From positions 3,058,983 to 3,122,982 of the forward strand of contig OZ244617.1 of the NCBI GenBank assembly GCA_965218305.1: a stretch of DNA of 64,000 nt, in the 5' to 3' direction. Under the pieces are notes generated by a model, which was not told the DNA's origin, searched no databases, and saw only the letters and a program-made list of their open reading frames with translations. The position numbers and the translations under genes are program-made. Positions within the stretch are counted from its first letter, which is position 1. The number at the start of each line of letters is the position of its first letter. This document shows positions 5,555 to 60,850 of this stretch, one piece after another. Source of the stretch: an uncultured Candidatus Binatia bacterium. Its GTDB lineage: Bacteria > Desulfobacterota > Binatia > UBA9968 > JAJDTQ01.

Positions 5555-6007
5555 CGGATCAAGATCGAACAACCGCACATCTCCCGCTTTAGTAATGCGG
5601 GCAATGAGGGGTGGTTGTGTCTTCGCAACGACGCGCCGGATCTTTGGCAAGGCCTTGACAATAGCCGAGGCCATCTCGTCACCCGACATGTTACCGGAAG
5701 GCAGAATAAACGCTCGGGCCCCGCTTCGCTGGAGTGCGTGGCGCTCGACGGGTCGCCTGCGTATTCGATCGTCCTTTGTAAGGATCAGCCATCCCCGCAG
5801 GCCCACCTCCGGCAGCCATTCTTCGTCTCGGGTATTCGTCGGGAAGTGATCCTTTAGCAATGCTACCGCGATTCCCTGATGACGGAGTGCGGTTGCGATG
5901 ACCTTGTCCCCCAAGCCCTGGTCGAGAAAAAAGGTGAAATCCTCAGGCGGCGTGCCCGTATTGCTCGCAACGGATCGCTTCTTCGATTTCTGACGGCGTT
6001 CGGTCAT
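5546..6007 (-). CDS. DUF5615/Mut7-C-like PIN-fold protein (putative toxin partner of DUF433)
   Basis: FTFFLDQGLGDKVIATALRHQGIAVALL resembles the DUF5615 N-terminal motif (F-L-I-D-E-N-L, then G-h-D-V). It lies immediately downstream of, and overlapping, the DUF433 gene. The start codon is uncertain: the ATG at 6007 gives a 65-nt overlap with the DUF433 gene. Confidence 0.4.
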   Translation of the reverse strand: MTERRQKSKKRSVASNTGTPPEDFTFFLDQGLGDKVIATALRHQGIAVALLKDHFPTNTRDEEWLPEVGLRGWLILTKDDRIRRRPVERHALQRSGARAFILPSGNMSGDEMASAIVKALPKIRRVVAKTQPPLIARITKAGDVRLFDLDPLP

Positions 6008-6716
6008 AGTCGTCCGCCAGTTGTTCTACGGACTCCCCCGCCCCAAAGCGTTGATAGATCACCTCCGTGGGTATGTGTGTGCCCGCCAACACCGGGCGGC
6101 CGAAGGCGACGCGAGGATCCACCACAACTATCCGCGGCGCAACCTCAGAGGTCTCCCATGTGTTTAGTTGCAGGTCCCGGCGGGTGAACAGGTAAAGTCT
6201 CACGGCAAGTCCAGAAAGGTCCCGCTCGATTCTTCGCAGGTGAATCTCCAGAACCTTCCGAATACCAAGCTGCCCCTCCTTCGAGATATTGATCAAACTC
6301 TCGAAGCTCTCGACGAAAAGGTCCAGTCCATCTGTTTCAAGCGTCCGATCGGCCAACGGATGAGGCGATGGATGTTTTCGCTTCAAATAGTCCAGAGCCT
6401 GTCTAACCGTTAATAAAGACACGTGATGTTGTCGGCGAATCGCCGCCAGGACATAGACCTCGATCAGATTTATGAACGACAACAAACAACGGTCGGCGTC
6501 AGCAAGGTCGATCACTGGTTGGAAGAATCGGGGTCCCGTGGAGGTTGGATAACCGCGCCCTCGGACCCATGCCCGCAGGGTAGCAGCCGGAACCTGGAGA
6601 TAGTGAGCCGCCTCCGGGATGCCGTAGGCCGGCAACTCAAGTGGATCCTTGCCGCCGTAAAGATCGATCGCCGTCTTCTCCTTCAAGGGTTTGTTCCTTC
6701 CGCCAAGGCTCCCCAT
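5943..6716 (-). CDS. DUF433 domain protein (antitoxin-like partner of a PIN-like/DUF5615 protein), unusually long N-terminal region
   Basis: The C-terminal segment FGRPVLAGTHIPTEVIYQRFGAGESVEQLADDY matches the DUF433 signature (R-P-x-I-x-G-T-R-I-x-V). It overlaps the downstream PIN-like gene in the manner of toxin-antitoxin pairs. Confidence 0.5.
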   Translation of the reverse strand: MGSLGGRNKPLKEKTAIDLYGGKDPLELPAYGIPEAAHYLQVPAATLRAWVRGRGYPTSTGPRFFQPVIDLADADRCLLSFINLIEVYVLAAIRRQHHVSLLTVRQALDYLKRKHPSPHPLADRTLETDGLDLFVESFESLINISKEGQLGIRKVLEIHLRRIERDLSGLAVRLYLFTRRDLQLNTWETSEVAPRIVVVDPRVAFGRPVLAGTHIPTEVIYQRFGAGESVEQLADDYDRTPSEIEEAIRCEQYGHAA

Positions 6717-6872
6717 GCCACGGGAGGGTCAAAGATCAAGTGTAACACGAAAAAATACCTGTGTGACAACACACTTCCGGCGGCATTCGCGGGACAGTCG
6801 GGCAAGGGCGACCGCCGGTCGCCCTTGCCCGAATAGACAATCGGAGAAATAAAGCCCGGACTCCGCCCCCGC

Positions 6873-9605: not shown

Positions 9606-9670
9606 GAGCCCCGATCGGGGCTGACGACAAACAAAAGGGGGGAGGACGCCTGTCCTCCCCCCTTTTGTTT
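9606..9670 (+). terminator. Rho-independent terminator of groESL (two GC hairpins followed by T-run)
   Basis: Palindrome GCCCCGATCGGGGC (9609-9622), then the stem GGGGGGAGGAC-gcct-GTCCTCCCCCC (9637-9662), followed by TTTTGTTT. Confidence 0.75.
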
Positions 9671-9792
9671 GGATTATATTTTGTTTGGGAACTTATATAC
9701 TTGACTAAAATCCTGCTTCGGGCTGTCCTTCGGTGGCGACATCAATCGCTTGGCCAGTGCGTCAGGCGTGATGTCGTCCTCGGGCCGTCGGG

Positions 9793-10533
9793 TCAACCTC
9801 CCAGCCTACTTGAAACGCTCTCTACGGCGCGCATCGCCAAAGCGACTGCTTCAGACCGCTTCGCGATCGAATCCCGCATTTCGCCATCTATGCGTTTCAC
9901 CAAGGCCACATCATCGTCCGTTTCCGGCAATGGCACAAGGACACCCGCTGCTTGTTCCTCAGTGAGTTCATCGACCACGGCACCGTAAATGGTGGCTGTC
10001 AACTGCAGTTGCCCGAAAATAGACGTCAAGAACGAACACAGGTATCCGCTCGGACACTGATCTTCGTCGGGTACTATCCGCAGGATGTGTTGGGATGCTG
10101 CCCATCCATCCCACTCCTGAGGACAAATGGTCACCCTCCCGATGGTTCCGGAACACGTCACAAGCAACCAACCTGCTTCAACAATCCACCGCTCTAGCCT
10201 CTTATGGGCGGTCTTGGAAAGATACTTCAGATCCGCGGGCCGGAAGTGGACGACGTGGCTCCCTTGTAAAAATGGGATTCCTGAATCGGGCTCGACATAG
10301 ATGCGTTTAAACCGAGGTGGAATGAAGATCCGAGACACTATCGAGCCTAACCGTTTGACTCGCATTCCCGACTTGCTCAATTGTTCGACTGCATGCAGAA
10401 CAGCCGGATTGAAGTAACTAGCATCCAACCGAAGTTCCTGCATCTCCACAATAGTTCCAGAAGAGAGGAGGAAATTCTCTACTCGTGGTTGACCTGTGAC
10501 CCTGATAACGGGGCTTGTACTGGACTTTGCCAT
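9793..10533 (-). CDS. Restriction-modification specificity subunit, HsdS-like with a single target-recognition domain
   Basis: 246 aa. The N-terminal conserved HsdS block (KRLGSIVSRI...GIPFLQGSHV) is followed by one TRD and a C-terminal helical conserved region. It starts 7 nt downstream of the methyltransferase gene on the same strand, within the low-GC island. Confidence 0.55.
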   Translation of the reverse strand: MAKSSTSPVIRVTGQPRVENFLLSSGTIVEMQELRLDASYFNPAVLHAVEQLSKSGMRVKRLGSIVSRIFIPPRFKRIYVEPDSGIPFLQGSHVVHFRPADLKYLSKTAHKRLERWIVEAGWLLVTCSGTIGRVTICPQEWDGWAASQHILRIVPDEDQCPSGYLCSFLTSIFGQLQLTATIYGAVVDELTEEQAAGVLVPLPETDDDVALVKRIDGEMRDSIAKRSEAVALAMRAVESVSSRLGG

Positions 10534-10539
10534 CGGTCA

Positions 10540-12420
10540 CTATCCTTCTGCCCAGTCTTGAAAGGCGGCTGTGACACGCGGCAGATCGTCATCTATCGTG
10601 GGCCGGTTTTCTTCATCGAGAATCGTAAGCCCTTCCGGCGTCCTCATGTACACCGGGTCTCCTCTTTTGGTTATGCCAACTGTCTTCGGGATCGCCATGA
10701 AGATATCATACTTGTCCAATGCCCCCGCCTGAGCCAACTTCGTTTCATTCAGTGTCAACCGCTGGACTATCAGAACGCTTGGATTCGGTACGCCACCACC
10801 TTCCGCGAAGGTTTCTTTTGGTAGATCAATGGATGCAACGATTCTGGCGTTGCGCAACAGCCAAGTTCGGATGAACTTCAAGCCGGGATTGTTCAAAATA
10901 CTGTCGGGGAGAACAATTGCCAGATATCCTCCCCGTTTGGCATACTTCAACGCTCCCTCTACAAATAGTTGTTCCGCCGGCATCATCTGCCGGGACTCCT
11001 TGATGTTTTGCGACGGTAATTCATAGCGCGACAACGTGTGTGGGTCATCTATCTGGGCCTGTCCGCCAAACGGGGGATTAGTCACAACAATGTCGAAGTC
11101 CCCTTGTTTGACCTTCGCCCTCGCAGTTTCGTCATCCCACTCGCTTGGCGACACCAATGAATCTCCCTGGAACACATTGGCGGACCCGTCGCCGTGCATA
11201 ACAAGATTCATTTGCGTAGTACGGACGAGAAACGGGTTGATGTCCATTCCGAAGAGGTTACGTTCAGCGAGTTCCTTGACGCGACCGCCAACGCGAGCCC
11301 GTATTTCGTCCTCCACCCCGCCCCTGGATTGCTCAAGTTCTTCTATTGTCTTGCGCAGCAAATTTAGCGTAGCAACCAGAAAGCCGCCGGTCCCACAACA
11401 GCAATCCAACACTTTGATGGATGTCAGTCGCCTACGAGGAAACAGGGAGAGCGCCATGCTTACGGTCATGTCGCAAACGTTACGTGGCGTGAAGAATTCG
11501 CCACGGTCCCCTCGCAAATTTGCCCCGACAAGTTCTTCATAGGCAGCGCCTTTAACGTCAGTGTTAGTACGAAGGAATGTGTACCGCTGCAATTCTGATA
11601 CGATATAGGCAAGTACGCGTGGGTGTAACTCTATGCCCTCCGTCTGTTTGAAGATGTACGGATATCGGTGCTTGACATCGGTAAAAAGGGGCGCAATTCG
11701 GTCCCGGACCAATGTCGTTTGGCCGGCAATTGACCTTCGTTCCTCGCTGGTCACGAAGAACCTCAGTGCGTCCATTGCCTCGTATTCGTCCAGTACCTTG
11801 CAGAAAATCAGTTTTTGAAGTTCGTGGAACGCTTCGGCCTTCTGTAGCCCTTGGTTTGCATAGATGTAGTTGTGGCAACGTCGAAGCGACGCCTTCAGGT
11901 CTATTGCGGGGGTGAGTTCTTTAAACGTGGGTGCCTTTGGTTGCATGTCGCCGTGGCGCGGTATGTCAGTCGTTTCCTCGATTCTGCCACCCTGCGCCTT
12001 CTCATAGGCTATTTTTTCAGAACCGACCCACAGGCCGTGTCGGCACGACGAGCATACGCTCATGTAACTCTTTAGCTGTTCTACCCCCTCCTTTTTGTCC
12101 TTTGTCGATACGCCCTCGCGCTTTGCTTCGACCACGATAAGGATTGAATCCTGGCGTCGCGGGCCGCCCGGCTTGAATACGACGATATCAGCGCGCTTCC
12201 GCGATGCTCCCATTTTGACCGAGAATTCAACCGCGATATCTGCTACATCGTATTTGTACTCTTCAACGAGACTTCGCGCCCATCTCTGCCGCACGTTTTC
12301 TTCAGGCGTGTCCTTTCTGAGTTGTCCAGTAATGAAACACCTAAGCTTCCCGGCTGGGATAAACGGTATAATTTCACTCATCCACGATGTCCTCGCGCAT
12401 GACGGCAGAGCAATCCCCAA
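10540..12420 (-). CDS. Fused restriction endonuclease/N6-adenine DNA methyltransferase (HsdR_N-type PD-(D/E)xK nuclease domain + gamma-class N6A MTase); Type IIB/IIG-like RM enzyme
   Basis: N-terminal nuclease motif ADIVVF...ILIVVEAKREG (D...E-x-K). SAM-binding motif I VLDCCCGTGGFLV. Catalytic motif IV IVVTNPPFGG. 626 aa in total, encoded in the low-GC island. Confidence 0.7.
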   Translation of the reverse strand: MGIALPSCARTSWMSEIIPFIPAGKLRCFITGQLRKDTPEENVRQRWARSLVEEYKYDVADIAVEFSVKMGASRKRADIVVFKPGGPRRQDSILIVVEAKREGVSTKDKKEGVEQLKSYMSVCSSCRHGLWVGSEKIAYEKAQGGRIEETTDIPRHGDMQPKAPTFKELTPAIDLKASLRRCHNYIYANQGLQKAEAFHELQKLIFCKVLDEYEAMDALRFFVTSEERRSIAGQTTLVRDRIAPLFTDVKHRYPYIFKQTEGIELHPRVLAYIVSELQRYTFLRTNTDVKGAAYEELVGANLRGDRGEFFTPRNVCDMTVSMALSLFPRRRLTSIKVLDCCCGTGGFLVATLNLLRKTIEELEQSRGGVEDEIRARVGGRVKELAERNLFGMDINPFLVRTTQMNLVMHGDGSANVFQGDSLVSPSEWDDETARAKVKQGDFDIVVTNPPFGGQAQIDDPHTLSRYELPSQNIKESRQMMPAEQLFVEGALKYAKRGGYLAIVLPDSILNNPGLKFIRTWLLRNARIVASIDLPKETFAEGGGVPNPSVLIVQRLTLNETKLAQAGALDKYDIFMAIPKTVGITKRGDPVYMRTPEGLTILDEENRPTIDDDLPRVTAAFQDWAEG

Positions 12421-12566
12421 AGATAGAGCCGGCTAGCAGGCATTGCCGTCAGTCGGCTCTTATCCGCCGTCTCTTCGGGCTTGTCGCTCTTCGGCAGCTG
12501 TAGCAGCATCCTCGCCAGTTCTTCCGGCGTGGCATCTATCGGTGGGATGGCGGCGGGCTTGGCCAT
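12378..12566 (-). CDS. Hypothetical small protein (possible regulatory ORF upstream of and overlapping the RM methyltransferase start)
   Basis: ORF MAKPAAIPPIDATPEELARMLLQLPKSDKPEE... within the island. Start codon and reality uncertain; no recognisable domain. Confidence 0.15.
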   Translation of the reverse strand: MAKPAAIPPIDATPEELARMLLQLPKSDKPEETADKSRLTAMPASRLYLWGLLCRHARGHRG

Positions 12567-12763
12567 GATCGTAACCTCGCTACTGGGATGGCTTTTCGGA
12601 TACCCCATGATGGGGAAGTGTGTCAAGAATGTGACACAAGGCTCGGGGGCAGGGCTTGACGGCCGCCGTTCAGTCCAGTATTTCATCCCCCTTTTTTTCC
12701 GGTAAGCTGGCCCGCCGCAGGGCGCCCCCCTTTGAAACCGCTCCCCCGACCATCATCCGTAGC

Positions 12764-13642: not shown

Positions 13643-14484
13643 GACTCCCGCATGGTCTCGCAGGCCGGCAACCGGAACAGCGCTCGGGCGTTGCGGCTGG
13701 CGGCGCCGGCGATTTCGTCAACGCCGACCCCCCGGACGCGGGCCAGGGTCTCGGCCACGAAACGGACGTAGGCGGGCTCGTTGCGCCGCCCCCGCCGGGG
13801 AACGGGCGCCAGGAACGGCGAGTCGGTCTCGATGAGCAGCCGGTCCAGGGGTGCCCAACGGGCGATATCCCTCAATGCTTCGGCGGTCTTGAAGGTGACG
13901 ATGCCCGAGAACGACAGGTAGAAGCCGAGGTCGAGGAACGTGCGCGCGGCCGCGGCGTCGCTGGTGAAGCAGTGGATCACCCCCTCCAGGCTTCCGCCGC
14001 CCCGGTTTCGAATCGTCTCCGCCACCTCGCGGTCCGACTCACGGTTGTGGACCACGATGGGCAACCGGGTCTCCACGGCCAGCGCCGCGAAGCGCTCGAA
14101 CATGTCTCGTTGCACCTGGCGGGGCGAGTGGTCGTAGTGGAAGTCGAGGCCGGTCTCGCCGATGGCGACGACCTTGGGATGCTCGGCGAGGCCGCGCATC
14201 CGGTCCATGGCGTCCGCGCTCACGTCCTTGGCGTCGTGCGGGTGCATTCCCACTGTGGCGTAGAGGTTCGCGTGTTCTTCCGCCAGGCGCACGGCCGCGT
14301 CGTTGGTGGAAAGATTCCCCGCCCCTCCGACGACGATCAGGGTTTCGACGCCCGCCTCCCGGGCCCGTGCCAGCACCTCATCGCGATCCTCGTCGAACTC
14401 CTCGGTCTGGATGTGGCAATGGGTGTCGATGAGGCGTCTGGATTCCCGCTTTCGCGGGAATGACGATGCGGGTGTCGGTGCCAT
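13639..14484 (-). CDS. tatD: TatD-family metal-dependent DNase/hydrolase
   Basis: IDTHCHIQ motif near the N-terminus and a TIM-barrel hydrolase pattern. Start set at MAPTPASS (24 aa before IDTHCH); the longer ORF would overlap metG. Stop/start ATGA overlap with aroE. Confidence 0.75.
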   Translation of the reverse strand: MAPTPASSFPRKRESRRLIDTHCHIQTEEFDEDRDEVLARAREAGVETLIVVGGAGNLSTNDAAVRLAEEHANLYATVGMHPHDAKDVSADAMDRMRGLAEHPKVVAIGETGLDFHYDHSPRQVQRDMFERFAALAVETRLPIVVHNRESDREVAETIRNRGGGSLEGVIHCFTSDAAAARTFLDLGFYLSFSGIVTFKTAEALRDIARWAPLDRLLIETDSPFLAPVPRRGRRNEPAYVRFVAETLARVRGVGVDEIAGAASRNARALFRLPACETMRES

Positions 14485-19039: not shown

Positions 19040-19155
19040 TCCCCTTCCCGTCATCCCGGACTTGATCCGGGATCCAGGAGGGGGGTTGGGGGCAAGGCAG
19101 ACCACCCCACGGCCACCCCTGGATCCCGGATCAAGTCCGGGATGACGGAGAGGTG
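19040..19155. repeat. Palindromic intergenic repeat element, copy A (complete): ~31-bp inverted arms GTCATCCCGGACTTGATCCGGGATCCAGGAG / CCTGGATCCCGGATCAAGTCCGGGATGAC separated by ~37 bp
   Basis: Left arm 19050-19080 and right arm 19118-19147 are perfect reverse complements. Further flanking complementarity extends out to 19040 and 19155. Confidence 0.85.
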
Positions 19156-21412: not shown

Positions 21413-21447
21413 AAAGGAACAATCGGCAGGAGGCGGGCGATCTTTAG

Positions 21448-21525
21448 CCCCGGATCAAGTCCGGGGTGACGTGGGGCGTCCGGGATGACGTGGGGCGAGC
21501 CCGGAATGACGCAGAGGGCGCTCGA
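21448..21525. repeat. Palindromic intergenic repeat element, copy B (partial: one arm CCCCGGATCAAGTCCGGGGTGAC plus degenerate GATGACGTGGGGCG tandem tail)
   Basis: Matches the right arm of copies A and D. Lies in the pilD-hydrolase intergenic region. Confidence 0.7.
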
Positions 21526-21541
21526 TGACGGCATCCCGGAA

Positions 21542-22687
21542 TCAGCGATTCCTGGATGCCAGCCATCCCCGGATCAGGGGAAAGACCTCGGTCTTGGCTT
21601 TCTTTCCGAGAATCAGGTCGAAGTGGCCGTAGCTGACGTCTTCGTCCGGGTCCGACCAGAAGATCATGAGGTCGCGATCCTCCGAAGACAACTCTTCGTA
21701 GACCTTCCTCAAGGCTGCCGGCGGCGCGATGGGGTCCGCCGCGCCCCCTATCAGGAGAACCGGGACATGGATTTTCGGGAGCCCATCCCGGTAGCTGGAT
21801 GCGCCGTCGGCGGAGACGAACTCGTCCTTGTCCACGGTCGTGACCAGTTGCTCTAAAACACCAGGGTTGACCGGAATCAGCAGCGTCTCCTGCAGTTCCT
21901 GCGCGACCCGCGGCTCCATGTTCCTGGGGTTGTAGAACACCTCTTTGAACCCGGGAACCATGAACAGAAACCGGTTCAGACCGGAGGAGCTCCAATAGAG
22001 AAGGGCGTTCCGCAGGGCCGGCTGGCGGTCCAGTCTGAGCAGGATGTCCAGCCCGTCCTGCTCACGGCTGTCGAAGGACATGGGCGCGGCGACGCTGACG
22101 ATCCCCGCGACGCCGTGATCACCAACCTTGCCGGCATGGGCCAGGGCCAACGCGCCGCCCAGCTCGTAACCCACCACAAAGACTTCGCTACTGCCGGAGG
22201 TCTTCTTGACGTATTCGATGACCGCGGGAAGGTCGTCCCTCAGGATGTCGTCCAGGGTCCAGGGCTTTCTTCCCCAACCCAACGGGTTGAGGCTGCGGCC
22301 GGTGCCTCGCAGCGACAGGTTCCAGACGTCAAAGCCGGCCTCGGCCAGGTACTCCGCCAAGCTCGCTCTGCCGTAGTCGAGGAAGCGGCTGTCCACCAGC
22401 AGGCCGTGGATGAGGATGACGGGTCGCGGGTGCCGTACGTTCTTGCTGAGACGGAACCGCATGGCGGTGAGCTCGAACTTCGTCTCGGTGACGGCCCAGT
22501 GACGCTTGGATTTTACGTACTCGTCGTCCAGCGAGGCTGCCCCCACCGGTCCAGGCAAGAGGCACAACAGGGCCGTTGCCAGGCAGAAGCAGAACACCCG
22601 GTACGTGACACCAAGAGAGTCCTGGTGACCTTCTCCCGAGGTCAGGGTCCGCCAGAACTGAACATCGATGAACCGCATCTCGTTCAC
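21542..22687 (-). CDS. Alpha/beta hydrolase (secreted, lipase/esterase-like)
   Basis: Signal-peptide-like N-terminal region. PVILIHGLL oxyanion region and a nucleophile elbow (VVGYELGG). 381 aa. Confidence 0.6.
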   Translation of the reverse strand: MNEMRFIDVQFWRTLTSGEGHQDSLGVTYRVFCFCLATALLCLLPGPVGAASLDDEYVKSKRHWAVTETKFELTAMRFRLSKNVRHPRPVILIHGLLVDSRFLDYGRASLAEYLAEAGFDVWNLSLRGTGRSLNPLGWGRKPWTLDDILRDDLPAVIEYVKKTSGSSEVFVVGYELGGALALAHAGKVGDHGVAGIVSVAAPMSFDSREQDGLDILLRLDRQPALRNALLYWSSSGLNRFLFMVPGFKEVFYNPRNMEPRVAQELQETLLIPVNPGVLEQLVTTVDKDEFVSADGASSYRDGLPKIHVPVLLIGGAADPIAPPAALRKVYEELSSEDRDLMIFWSDPDEDVSYGHFDLILGKKAKTEVFPLIRGWLASRNR

Positions 22688-25683: not shown

Positions 25684-25992
25684 TCATGCCGGGGCTGGTT
25701 GCAAGGTGCGCTCGCGCAATGTGCCCATCTCTTCCCGCAGGTGGCTTACTTCCCCCCGCAGGTGGCTCACGTCTTGCCGCACCTCGCGCAACTCCCCCCG
25801 TAGTTCGGAAATGCGCTGGTCCACTTCGGTGAACCGCTGGTCCACCTGGTCGAACCGCCGGTCCACCTGGGCAAACCGCAGGTCCATCTCCCGATGCATG
25901 TCCGCCCGCAGGCTCTGTATCATTCTCGCCAACGCGAGACCCACGCCTACGACTGACAAGATGATGGCGATTGCCGAAATATCGACGTTCAT
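25684..25992 (-). CDS. Small N-terminally membrane-anchored coiled-coil protein with heptad repeats (DxRFxQV)x4
   Basis: One TM helix (ISAIAIILSVVGVGLALA), then RFAQVDRRFDQVDQRFTEVDQRISELRGELREVRQDVSHLRGEVSHLREE. Encoded by 21-bp tandem DNA repeats. Confidence 0.4.
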   Translation of the reverse strand: MNVDISAIAIILSVVGVGLALARMIQSLRADMHREMDLRFAQVDRRFDQVDQRFTEVDQRISELRGELREVRQDVSHLRGEVSHLREEMGTLRERTLQPAPA

Positions 25993-32054: not shown

Positions 32055-32212
32055 CATCCGCAATGCCCCTCCCCGTCATCCCGGGCTTGACCCGGGATCC
32101 AGGAGAGGGGAGGGGCCGTACCGGCAGACACGCCCCGCCACCACCCCTGGATCCCGAGTCAAGCCCGGGATGACGGGGAGGGGGGCCGGGATGTCGGGGA
32201 CTTGACCCGGAA
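32055..32212. repeat. Palindromic intergenic repeat element, copy C (complete variant with compensatory arm substitutions, plus an extra degenerate half-arm)
   Basis: Left arm GTCATCCCGGGCTTGACCCGGGATCCAGGAG (32067-32097). Right arm CCTGGATCCCGAGTCAAGCCCGGGATGAC (32138-32166). A third half-arm GTCGGGGACTTGACCCGGAATCACGG lies at ~32184-32210. The element sits between the coxM-like and coxS-like genes. Confidence 0.85.
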
Positions 32213-32250
32213 TCACGGATTGAACATTAGCGGGTTATTCCCACAGGACC

Positions 32251-56220: not shown

Positions 56221-56560
56221 TCCCGTCACCTCGGACTGTTCCCGCCACCCCGGACTTGTTCCCGCCACCCCGGACTTGTTCCCGCCACCCCGCAACCCCT
56301 CTCCGTCACCCCGGACTTGATCCGGGGTCCAGGAGCGGAGGGGCAAGAGGGACGACAAGCAACACGCCCCACCACCGCCCTCTGGACCCCGGATCAAGTC
56401 CGGGGTGACGGAGAGGTGGCCCGTGGGTGACGGAGAGGTGGCCCGTGGGTGACGGAGAGGTGGCCGGTGGGTGGCGGAGAGGTGACGCGGGGTGACGGAG
56501 AGGTGACGCGGGGTGACGGAGAGGTAAGACGGGGGTGACGGAGAGGTGGCGCGGGGATGG
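56221..56560. repeat. Composite repeat locus, copy D. Four tandem 20-bp units, then a complete palindromic element, then ~7 tandem 22-bp units (GGTGACGGAGAGGTGGCCCGTG).
   Basis: 20-bp units at 56221-56300. Left arm 56305-56335 and right arm 56382-56409. The 22-bp tandem array runs 56404-56555 and reiterates the element's terminal sequence. It generates spurious repetitive ORFs on the minus strand. Confidence 0.85.
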
Positions 56561-56647
56561 CGGATTCGGCGCGACGACGGTGCCTGAATTTCACGGGCTT
56601 CTGTGTTACGTTCGTTGAATTCTTTGCCGTAAAGGGGCCGCGAGCAC

Positions 56648-60783: not shown

Positions 60784-60850
60784 GGCCCCGGACTTGATCC
60801 GGGGCCGGGATGACGGGAGAAGGGGTCCCGCGGTGGGCTCCCGCCACCCA
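60784..60850. repeat. Palindromic intergenic repeat element, copy E (partial/degenerate: CCCCGGACTTGATCCGGGG + GGGATGACGGGAGAAGGGG)
   Basis: Shares the arm core with copies A-D. Located in the divergent intergenic region upstream of the M20 peptidase gene. Confidence 0.65.

Follow-up and report, generated by a model that had tools for sequence, protein, structure and literature searches.

The window, by which we mean the whole 64-kb stretch of DNA analysed here, carries a family of short palindromic repeats dispersed between its genes, with neighbours that include metG, tatD, a pseudopilin operon and a prepilin peptidase gene. The 17-nt core of these repeats, CCCGGRCTTGAYCCGGG, occurs eight times (19055+, 19125-, 21449-, 32080+, 32153-, 56310+, 56388-, 60787+) against 0.19 expected, and the 31-nt arm pattern gave five matches with up to three mismatches in the window versus 0.00 in 100 shuffles. 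Together they form three inverted doublets of ~115 bp (A, C and D), a single unit (B) and a collapsed remnant (E). All five copies are intergenic, with Pfam support for the flanking ORFs at each locus (5/5). The original prediction of a dispersed palindromic intergenic repeat family at five loci was therefore borne out, and its view of the family as non-autonomous was upheld. Two of its details needed revision: B, taken for a partial copy, is one complete unit followed by an array of half-units, and only E is a collapsed remnant; and the list of five loci, all of them real, overlooked a sixth member of a different subtype at 14438-14465.

The inverted doublets were picked up by a repeat finder, with arms that are 86% complementary in A (19043-19091/19105-19153), 87% complementary in C (32066-32119/32130-32183) and 100% complementary over 35 nt in D (56298-56332/56382-56416). 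The three are mutually homologous across arms and spacer, at 72-88% identity. Their folding energies as ssDNA range from -51 to -59 kcal/mol (z-scores between -10 and -13). Each arm is in itself an oriented unit of ~28 nt, 5'-(C)GTC-AYCCCGGR-CTTGA-YCCGGGRT-CCA-3', in which an 8-bp stem closes a loop of 5 nt and the flanks are asymmetric.

The exact arm strings and their peptide read-throughs returned no papers in a full-text literature search, and the link to a described family came through a search on related strings, those of the Neisseria Transformation Sequence (NTS) and dRS3. The NTS, CGTCATTCCCGCGMAVGCGGGAATCYRG, contains the older dRS3 repeat and has been generalised, by means of a degenerate search string, to the widely distributed "Ssn-related motifs" or SRM (Chenal et al., 2025, Nat Commun; PMC11893778). 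The published string, HGTCWYN(0-2)YYVSBRHN(0-5)WNVSBRGN(0-2)RNCYNB, matches the window seven times, six of these being genuine units, versus 0.98 +/- 0.99 matches in 100 dinucleotide shuffles. By sequence, the arms are members of the SRM family, and the repeats represent a new example within a family of hairpin repeats described in 2025, not a new class. The features assigned to the family in the window are given in Table 1.

Table 1. Units, doublets and half-unit arrays of the repeat family in the 64-kb window.
Feature	Coordinates	Strand	Sequence, context and basis
Single SRM unit, canonical NTS type	14438..14465	-	GTCATTCCCGCGAAAGCGGGAATCCAG / CGTCATTCCCGCGAAAGCGGGAATCCAG; GAAA loop; includes the dRS3 core ATTCCC-N8-GGGAAT exactly; DNA fold -11.9 kcal/mol, z -4.9; between metG and tatD, genes of one operon (relatives' gene calls); hairpin scan, sequence, published SRM string
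Doublet A	19041..19153	.	SRM arms 19049-19077 (+) and 19119-19147 (-); CCA ends directed inwards, with a G-rich/C-rich, partly self-complementary spacer between them; flanked by a small ORF (ends 19023) and the pseudopilin operon (ends 19167), whose 3' ends converge here
Single SRM unit B	21444..21471	-	CGTCACCCCGGACTTGATCCGGGGC; 3' tail not TCCA; flanked by the prepilin peptidase gene and a hydrolase gene
Half-unit array at B	21472..21530	-	~3 5' half-units, period 19-23; half-unit GTCAYCCCGGA... without the 3' stem half; immediately upstream of B in motif orientation
Doublet C	32066..32183	.	Arms 32074-32102 (+) and 32147-32175 (-); inner stem pair G-C, not A-T, in both arms; right arm with one G.T pair
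Degenerate extra units by doublet C	32184..32220	.	ccgggatgtcggggacttgacccggaatcacgg
5' half-unit array	56221..56292	+	TCCCGCCACCCCGGACTTGT; upstream of the left arm of D
Doublet D	56298..56416	.	Arms 56304-56332 (+) and 56382-56410 (-); outer stem pair C-G in both
5' half-unit array with CT-rich upstream flank	56403..56564	-	CCACCTCTCCGTCACCC...; upstream of the right arm of D
Remnant E	60784..60825	+	In a divergent promoter region; hairpin 60784-60806, GGCCCCGGA-CTTGA-TCCGGGGCC, without the GTCA head, fused to 60807-60825, a terminal fragment of a second arm, GGGATGACGGGAGAAGGGG

The window repeats share with the SRM/NTS-SsnA system a ~28-nt oriented hairpin that fits the published string, with head (C)GTCA(Y) and tail (R)TCC(A), as well as an intergenic, multi-copy occurrence in many phyla and GIY-YIG genes that are flanked by the motif in other genomes. 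One window unit is moreover of the canonical NTS sequence type. They differ in that the main window subtype has a CTTGA pentaloop and a CCCGGR stem, in that units are organised as ~115-bp head-to-head doublets and preceded by 5' half-unit arrays of period 19-22, and in that no Ssn gene lies within the 64-kb window. Neither the doublets nor the tandem half-unit arrays are mentioned by Chenal et al. (2025). The CTTGA-type arm is present in Rhizorhabdus wittichii, one of the example species of that study, and related subtypes keep the GTC...CCA frame with other stems and loops (ATTGCGGG-CTTGA, ATGCCGGA-CTTGA, ATTCCCGC-GAAA, ATCCTGAC-GAAA).

The core of the NTS, dRS3 (ATTCCC-N8-GGGAAT), is known from the dRS3 repeats and NIMEs of Neisseria (Parkhill, 2000; Bentley, 2007; PMC1797815). 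The unit at 14438-14465 fits it exactly, and in both cases variable regions are marked by repeats grouped around genes. Unlike dRS3, the CTTGA-type arms read ATCCCGG or ACCCCGG and do not fit ATTCCC-N8-GGGAAT, and here we see neither RS elements between the units nor phage integration. The 14438-14465 unit, on the minus strand, sits just upstream of the LIDTHCH region conserved at the start of tatD; a long ORF call would turn it into an N-terminal extension (...SSFPRKRESR...), which may be spurious.

The original prediction also held that copy C carries compensatory changes mirrored between its two arms, preserving one long hairpin. The covariation proved to be real, and the pairing lies within the stem of each arm rather than across arms. 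Among the window copies, the positions that vary pair inside one arm (T..A in A, C..G in D); in C, where GGGCTTGACCC is present in both arms, the inner A-T pair has become G-C with both partners in the stem of the same arm, and one additional change in the right arm (CTCGGG) produces a G.T pair. We then scanned the genome collection with a pattern that left the four variable stem positions free. Among the 149 matches listed, the outer pair was T.A in 73, C.G in 75 and another combination in one, and the inner pair was A.T in 94, G.C in 53 and another in two (Fisher p ~1e-42 and ~1e-38, for copies that are not independent and come from very diverse taxa). Selection on the flanks only (GTCAY...RTCCA) gave 64 distinct sequences, chance matches among them, in which 91% of stem cells were paired, compared with 17-44% in slid controls, and 103 double-sided changes were counted versus 27 in shuffles. 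None of 500 shuffles reached the observed covariation, so that the base-pair covariation checked for lies beyond chance. The GTC and CCA flanks are conserved and the stem varies by covariation.

The same comparison shows which hairpin is kept. Among 105 adjacent unit pairs in other genomes, 86 are head-to-head with their CCA ends facing, and in 73 of these 86 doublets the arms have different stems, each self-complementary; over their stem positions the two arms are only 75% identical. Conservation therefore does not extend to the long hairpin, whose preservation as a selected structure, as first proposed, is contradicted by these heterologous arms. The conserved and recognised unit is the small hairpin of each arm, and the mirrored changes of copy C mean that its two arms are of the same subtype. 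Concordance of the arms within doublets (3/3 in the window) had been considered as evidence of templated copying, and was dropped as a general feature since contigs with the same repeat style, L127 and L194, have heterologous arms. In energy terms the window doublets nevertheless favour one long hairpin (-51 to -59 kcal/mol) over two small ones (-9 to -12 kcal/mol). We counted this preference of ~40 kcal/mol against an explanation involving Ssn, because a doublet folded in this way would bury the single-stranded flanks that Ssn requires.

With a 23-nt pattern we found more than 119 stretches in a collection of species-representative genomes, plus 76 metagenome loci. Sphingomonadales dominate among the genome matches listed, together with Burkholderiales, Actinomycetota, Firmicutes, Bacteroidota, a Binatia MAG, Zixibacteria, Omnitrophota, Cloacimonadota and low-GC genomes of the candidate phyla radiation, where the DNA around the GC-rich unit is 38-41% GC. 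The arm is also present in sphingomonad plasmids, with no annotation beneath the matches in a plasmid database search. With both many additional copies and genuine covariation found, the family originally proposed stands. As to the identity of the organism, the metagenome loci gave no nucleotide match, and protein identities did not exceed 42% for any locus. The repeat style of the window is closest to that of the Binatia MAG L079 and of the LXNJ01 contigs, a likeness that is not a taxonomic assignment. In four loci of 34-41% GC from MAGs of the candidate phyla radiation and of Rickettsiales (L026, L081, L118, L020), the GC-rich CTTGA unit occurs unchanged, usually with a partner of a different subtype, which suggests either horizontal spread or a very tight constraint on its sequence.

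Several units are preceded by tandem arrays. Tandem Repeats Finder (TRF) reported arrays at 56221-56292 (period 20, 3.7 copies), 56403-56564 (period 22, 7.5 copies), 21459-21511 (period 19) and 32164-32218 (period 21). What is repeated in every array is the 5' portion of the unit, in some cases together with the CT-rich upstream flank, and the copies are stacked upstream of a complete unit and share its strand. A half-unit lies 17-25 nt upstream of 39 of the 491 units from all sources, most of them in the window, the LXNJ01 metagenome contigs and the Binatia MAG L079, and orphan heads in the 70-nt flanks are found sense-upstream in 26 cases versus eight sense-downstream. Next to the variable array at B, all four strains compared share a conserved imperfect hairpin at 21533-21568, GGCATCCCGGAATCAGCGATTCCTGGATGCC, that may be a decayed unit. 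Two period-21 tandem repeats at 25730-25886 (2.5 and 3.5 copies; TRF) are unrelated to the hairpin family.

Comparison with metagenome contigs that are 96-99% identical to the window (L120-L123) revealed how variable these repeats are among strains. Doublet A is absent from L120, where the site keeps a degenerate arm-like stretch, CCCGCGTCAAGCCTCACGG; as this site is not clean, exact element boundaries or a target site cannot be defined from it, and between the filled site and this L120 site, itself not cleanly empty, no target-site duplication is visible. One additional 21-nt half-unit is present at A in L121. The array at B ranges from none to ~3 units across the four strains. In L123, both arrays at D differ in unit number, the one at 56221-56292 having one unit fewer, and remnant E is absent. 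Turnover of doublets and half-unit arrays between near-identical strains is recent, and their gain and loss are probably quick.

Other segments of the window vary among strains as well. A 3-kb segment between groEL and aroE (9667-12741), absent from three strains 96-99% identical, encodes a fused N6-methylase/HSDR_N protein of 626 aa and a second protein of 246 aa with a weak specificity-domain match below the Pfam cut-off; it looks like a strain-specific restriction-modification insertion. Between the UvrD-like helicase and GST genes, 5555-6868 is also strain-variable, with a DUF433/HTH gene in the window, L120 and L122, and an HTH_3 gene in L121. Finally, the pseudopilin operon with a unit on either side is reminiscent of the motif-gene-motif order that has been discussed for surface genes of Neisseria (Chenal et al., 2025), and we give this no weight because it is a single case and A is absent in one strain.

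A protein partner of SRMs is described in Neisseria, namely SsnA, of 94 aa, with GIY-YIG as its single domain (cd10448). In ssDNA the motif folds into a small hairpin; SsnA binds it in this form only, and on one strand only, reading the stem sequence and the non-palindromic flanks, and cleaves a few nucleotides 5' of the motif; strand-specific ssDNA binding and upstream cleavage are described for four homologues (Chenal et al., 2025). In Neisseria, SsnA reduces the integration of incoming motif-bearing ssDNA, with transformation lowered about five-fold. SRMs lie near 71% of ssnA homologues, and such a homologue is present in 81% of the genomes that exceed 200 SRMs (Chenal et al., 2025).

Profile searches found no GIY-YIG or Ssn gene in the 64-kb window. 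In motif-containing loci fetched from other genomes, they raised the yield of small GIY-YIG ORFs to eight, from two in a regular-expression scan. These ORFs, of 95-157 aa as open frames, were called on Pfam PF01541 (confirmed where tested), size and single-domain architecture. Six of the eight lie within 110 nt of a CTTGA-type unit (L046 twice, L065, L184, and L134/L198, one element read on both strands): in L046 (Sphingopyxis witflariensis) two tandem copies are bracketed by units, and in L065 there are units on both sides. Gene-family enrichment within 2.5 kb of the motif at 119 loci gave no recurrent neighbour, the largest cluster comprising eight loci, and ORFs sandwiched between units are either ordinary genes or GIY-YIG. 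In the fetched loci, the single-domain GIY-YIG nuclease is the only small recurrent gene that directly adjoins the motif.

Two of these loci have further peculiarities. In L046, an IS of ~1 kb (1660-2740, with a 331-aa ORF on the minus strand) is inserted in the right stem of an SRM hairpin between the two tandem ssn-like genes, a situation reminiscent of mobile elements whose targets are REP or dRS3 hairpins. The ssn-like gene of L134 (8590-9170; L198 on the reverse strand) is flanked first by a longer-stem SRM subtype (GTCATCCTCGGCCTCCGAGCCGAGGATCCA, GTCATCCTAGGACCCCGACCCTAGGATCCA), with CTTGA-type units only farther out, and the presence of two subtypes makes the match between subtype and nuclease ambiguous.

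From these results, we think it quite probable that the SRM arms are acted on by a cognate Ssn encoded outside the window, with REPIN-like doublets and arrays in quick turnover. A unit would fold into its small hairpin whenever the DNA becomes single-stranded, and the cognate nuclease, whose presence elsewhere in the genome we infer, would then act on it during replication, repair or DNA uptake. The units would be organised as REPIN-like head-to-head doublets of ~115 bp. As to how doublets and arrays come and go, one may imagine slippage, or stalling followed by re-priming, either at the hairpin or at a protein bound to it, though this is speculation. Half-unit arrays lie on the side where SsnA cuts, and it is plausible that they arise from polymerase stalling and re-priming at the hairpin or the bound protein.

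Other origins can be considered for such elements. REPs are described as lineage-specific, and the protein associated with REPs and REPINs is a Y1 HUH transposase (RAYT); REPINs are non-autonomous and presumably rely on a domesticated nuclease, present in single copy, whose substrates are hairpins in ssDNA. The window family has much in common with REPs, BIMEs and REPINs, namely short palindromic units, a conserved non-palindromic head and an inverted pair as the evolving unit, and mobilisation by an IS200/IS605-like RAYT, suspected originally, could account for the two inverted units with a short spacer, for the head-to-head orientation of 86 of 105 adjacent pairs, and for dispersed intergenic copies that are present or absent depending on the strain. 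A folded hairpin recognised on one strand and cut a short distance from its foot would likewise be common to these repeats and the subterminal hairpins of IS200/IS605. Yet the conserved head of all units is GTCA(Y), whereas REPs are reportedly defined by the tetranucleotide GT[AG]G at the 5' foot of the palindrome, and the units match the SRM string. The family also differs from lineage-specific REPs by spanning many phyla with near-identical units, and from IS200/IS605 by having no transposase gene between hairpins and no left-end/right-end asymmetry. The window genes checked include no transposase, and the only small recurrent motif-flanked gene encodes a GIY-YIG nuclease instead of a Y1 HUH transposase. 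A RAYT as partner thus finds no support, and we hold this origin to be very unlikely. Movement in trans of a MITE by a DDE transposase is the least credible origin of all: the ~115-bp length, inverted ends, non-coding content and insertion polymorphism between strains would suit a MITE, but a target-site duplication is not visible at A, the two "terminal repeats" are usually unlike and each self-complementary (73/86 doublets), and single units and half-units occur too.

The repeats could also be relic or selfish hairpins with no dedicated protein partner, changing through slippage, gene conversion and palindrome recombination. This would agree with the lack of an Ssn gene in the window, with the degenerate remnants (E, the units beside C, the L120 site), with the variation in array copy number, as slippage predicts, and with the absence of ssnA from 19% of SRM-rich genomes (Chenal et al., 2025). 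What speaks against it is that stem pairs and oriented flanks are near-perfectly kept in six window units and across phyla, which implies continuing sequence-specific constraint or recent copying, and we judge it unlikely. A role in RNA, as bidirectional terminators or as mRNA-stabilising hairpins of the kind known for some REPs, might be read from the very stable predicted hairpins and from the position of A between convergent genes and of C and D between co-directional genes. The hairpins are, however, followed by GGAGAGG or CCAGG and not by a T-run, E lies in a divergent promoter region and the 14438 unit between genes of one operon, and the asymmetric GTC...CCA flanks and heterologous arms would be left unexplained. 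A search for RNA families gave no Rfam family at the gathering threshold, and at a permissive threshold only generic miRNA-precursor hairpins, which are uninformative; no tRNA or tmRNA genes were found in the window. Since SsnA moreover does not bind RNA (Chenal et al., 2025), we consider an RNA-level function highly improbable as the basis of the family, and a side effect of the elements on transcripts possible.

Action of a cognate Ssn nuclease on the SRM arms therefore remains our preferred reading. A bolder and rather doubtful proposal is that an Ssn-type GIY-YIG nuclease drives active copying, of which doublets, directional arrays and turnover would be the footprints. Were this true, SRM/Ssn would be a second, independently evolved system like REPIN/RAYT with a domesticated ssDNA nuclease, and the half-unit arrays would mark repeated events of cutting and recopying just upstream of the hairpin.

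Our analysis assigns an unannotated repeat from an uncultured high-GC bacterium to a family whose protein partner and biochemical activity are known; annotators currently leave these units blank or translate them as spurious N-terminal extensions. The covariation observed across phyla provides natural evidence that the small hairpin, and not the doublet, is the recognised unit. New with respect to the work of Chenal et al. (2025) are the organisation into doublets, the arrays of half-units and the turnover between strains in this lineage, all of which bear on the open question raised there of whether Ssn spreads its own repeats. Finally, the CTTGA subtype and the nucleases that adjoin it are candidates for new ssDNA-cutting specificities.
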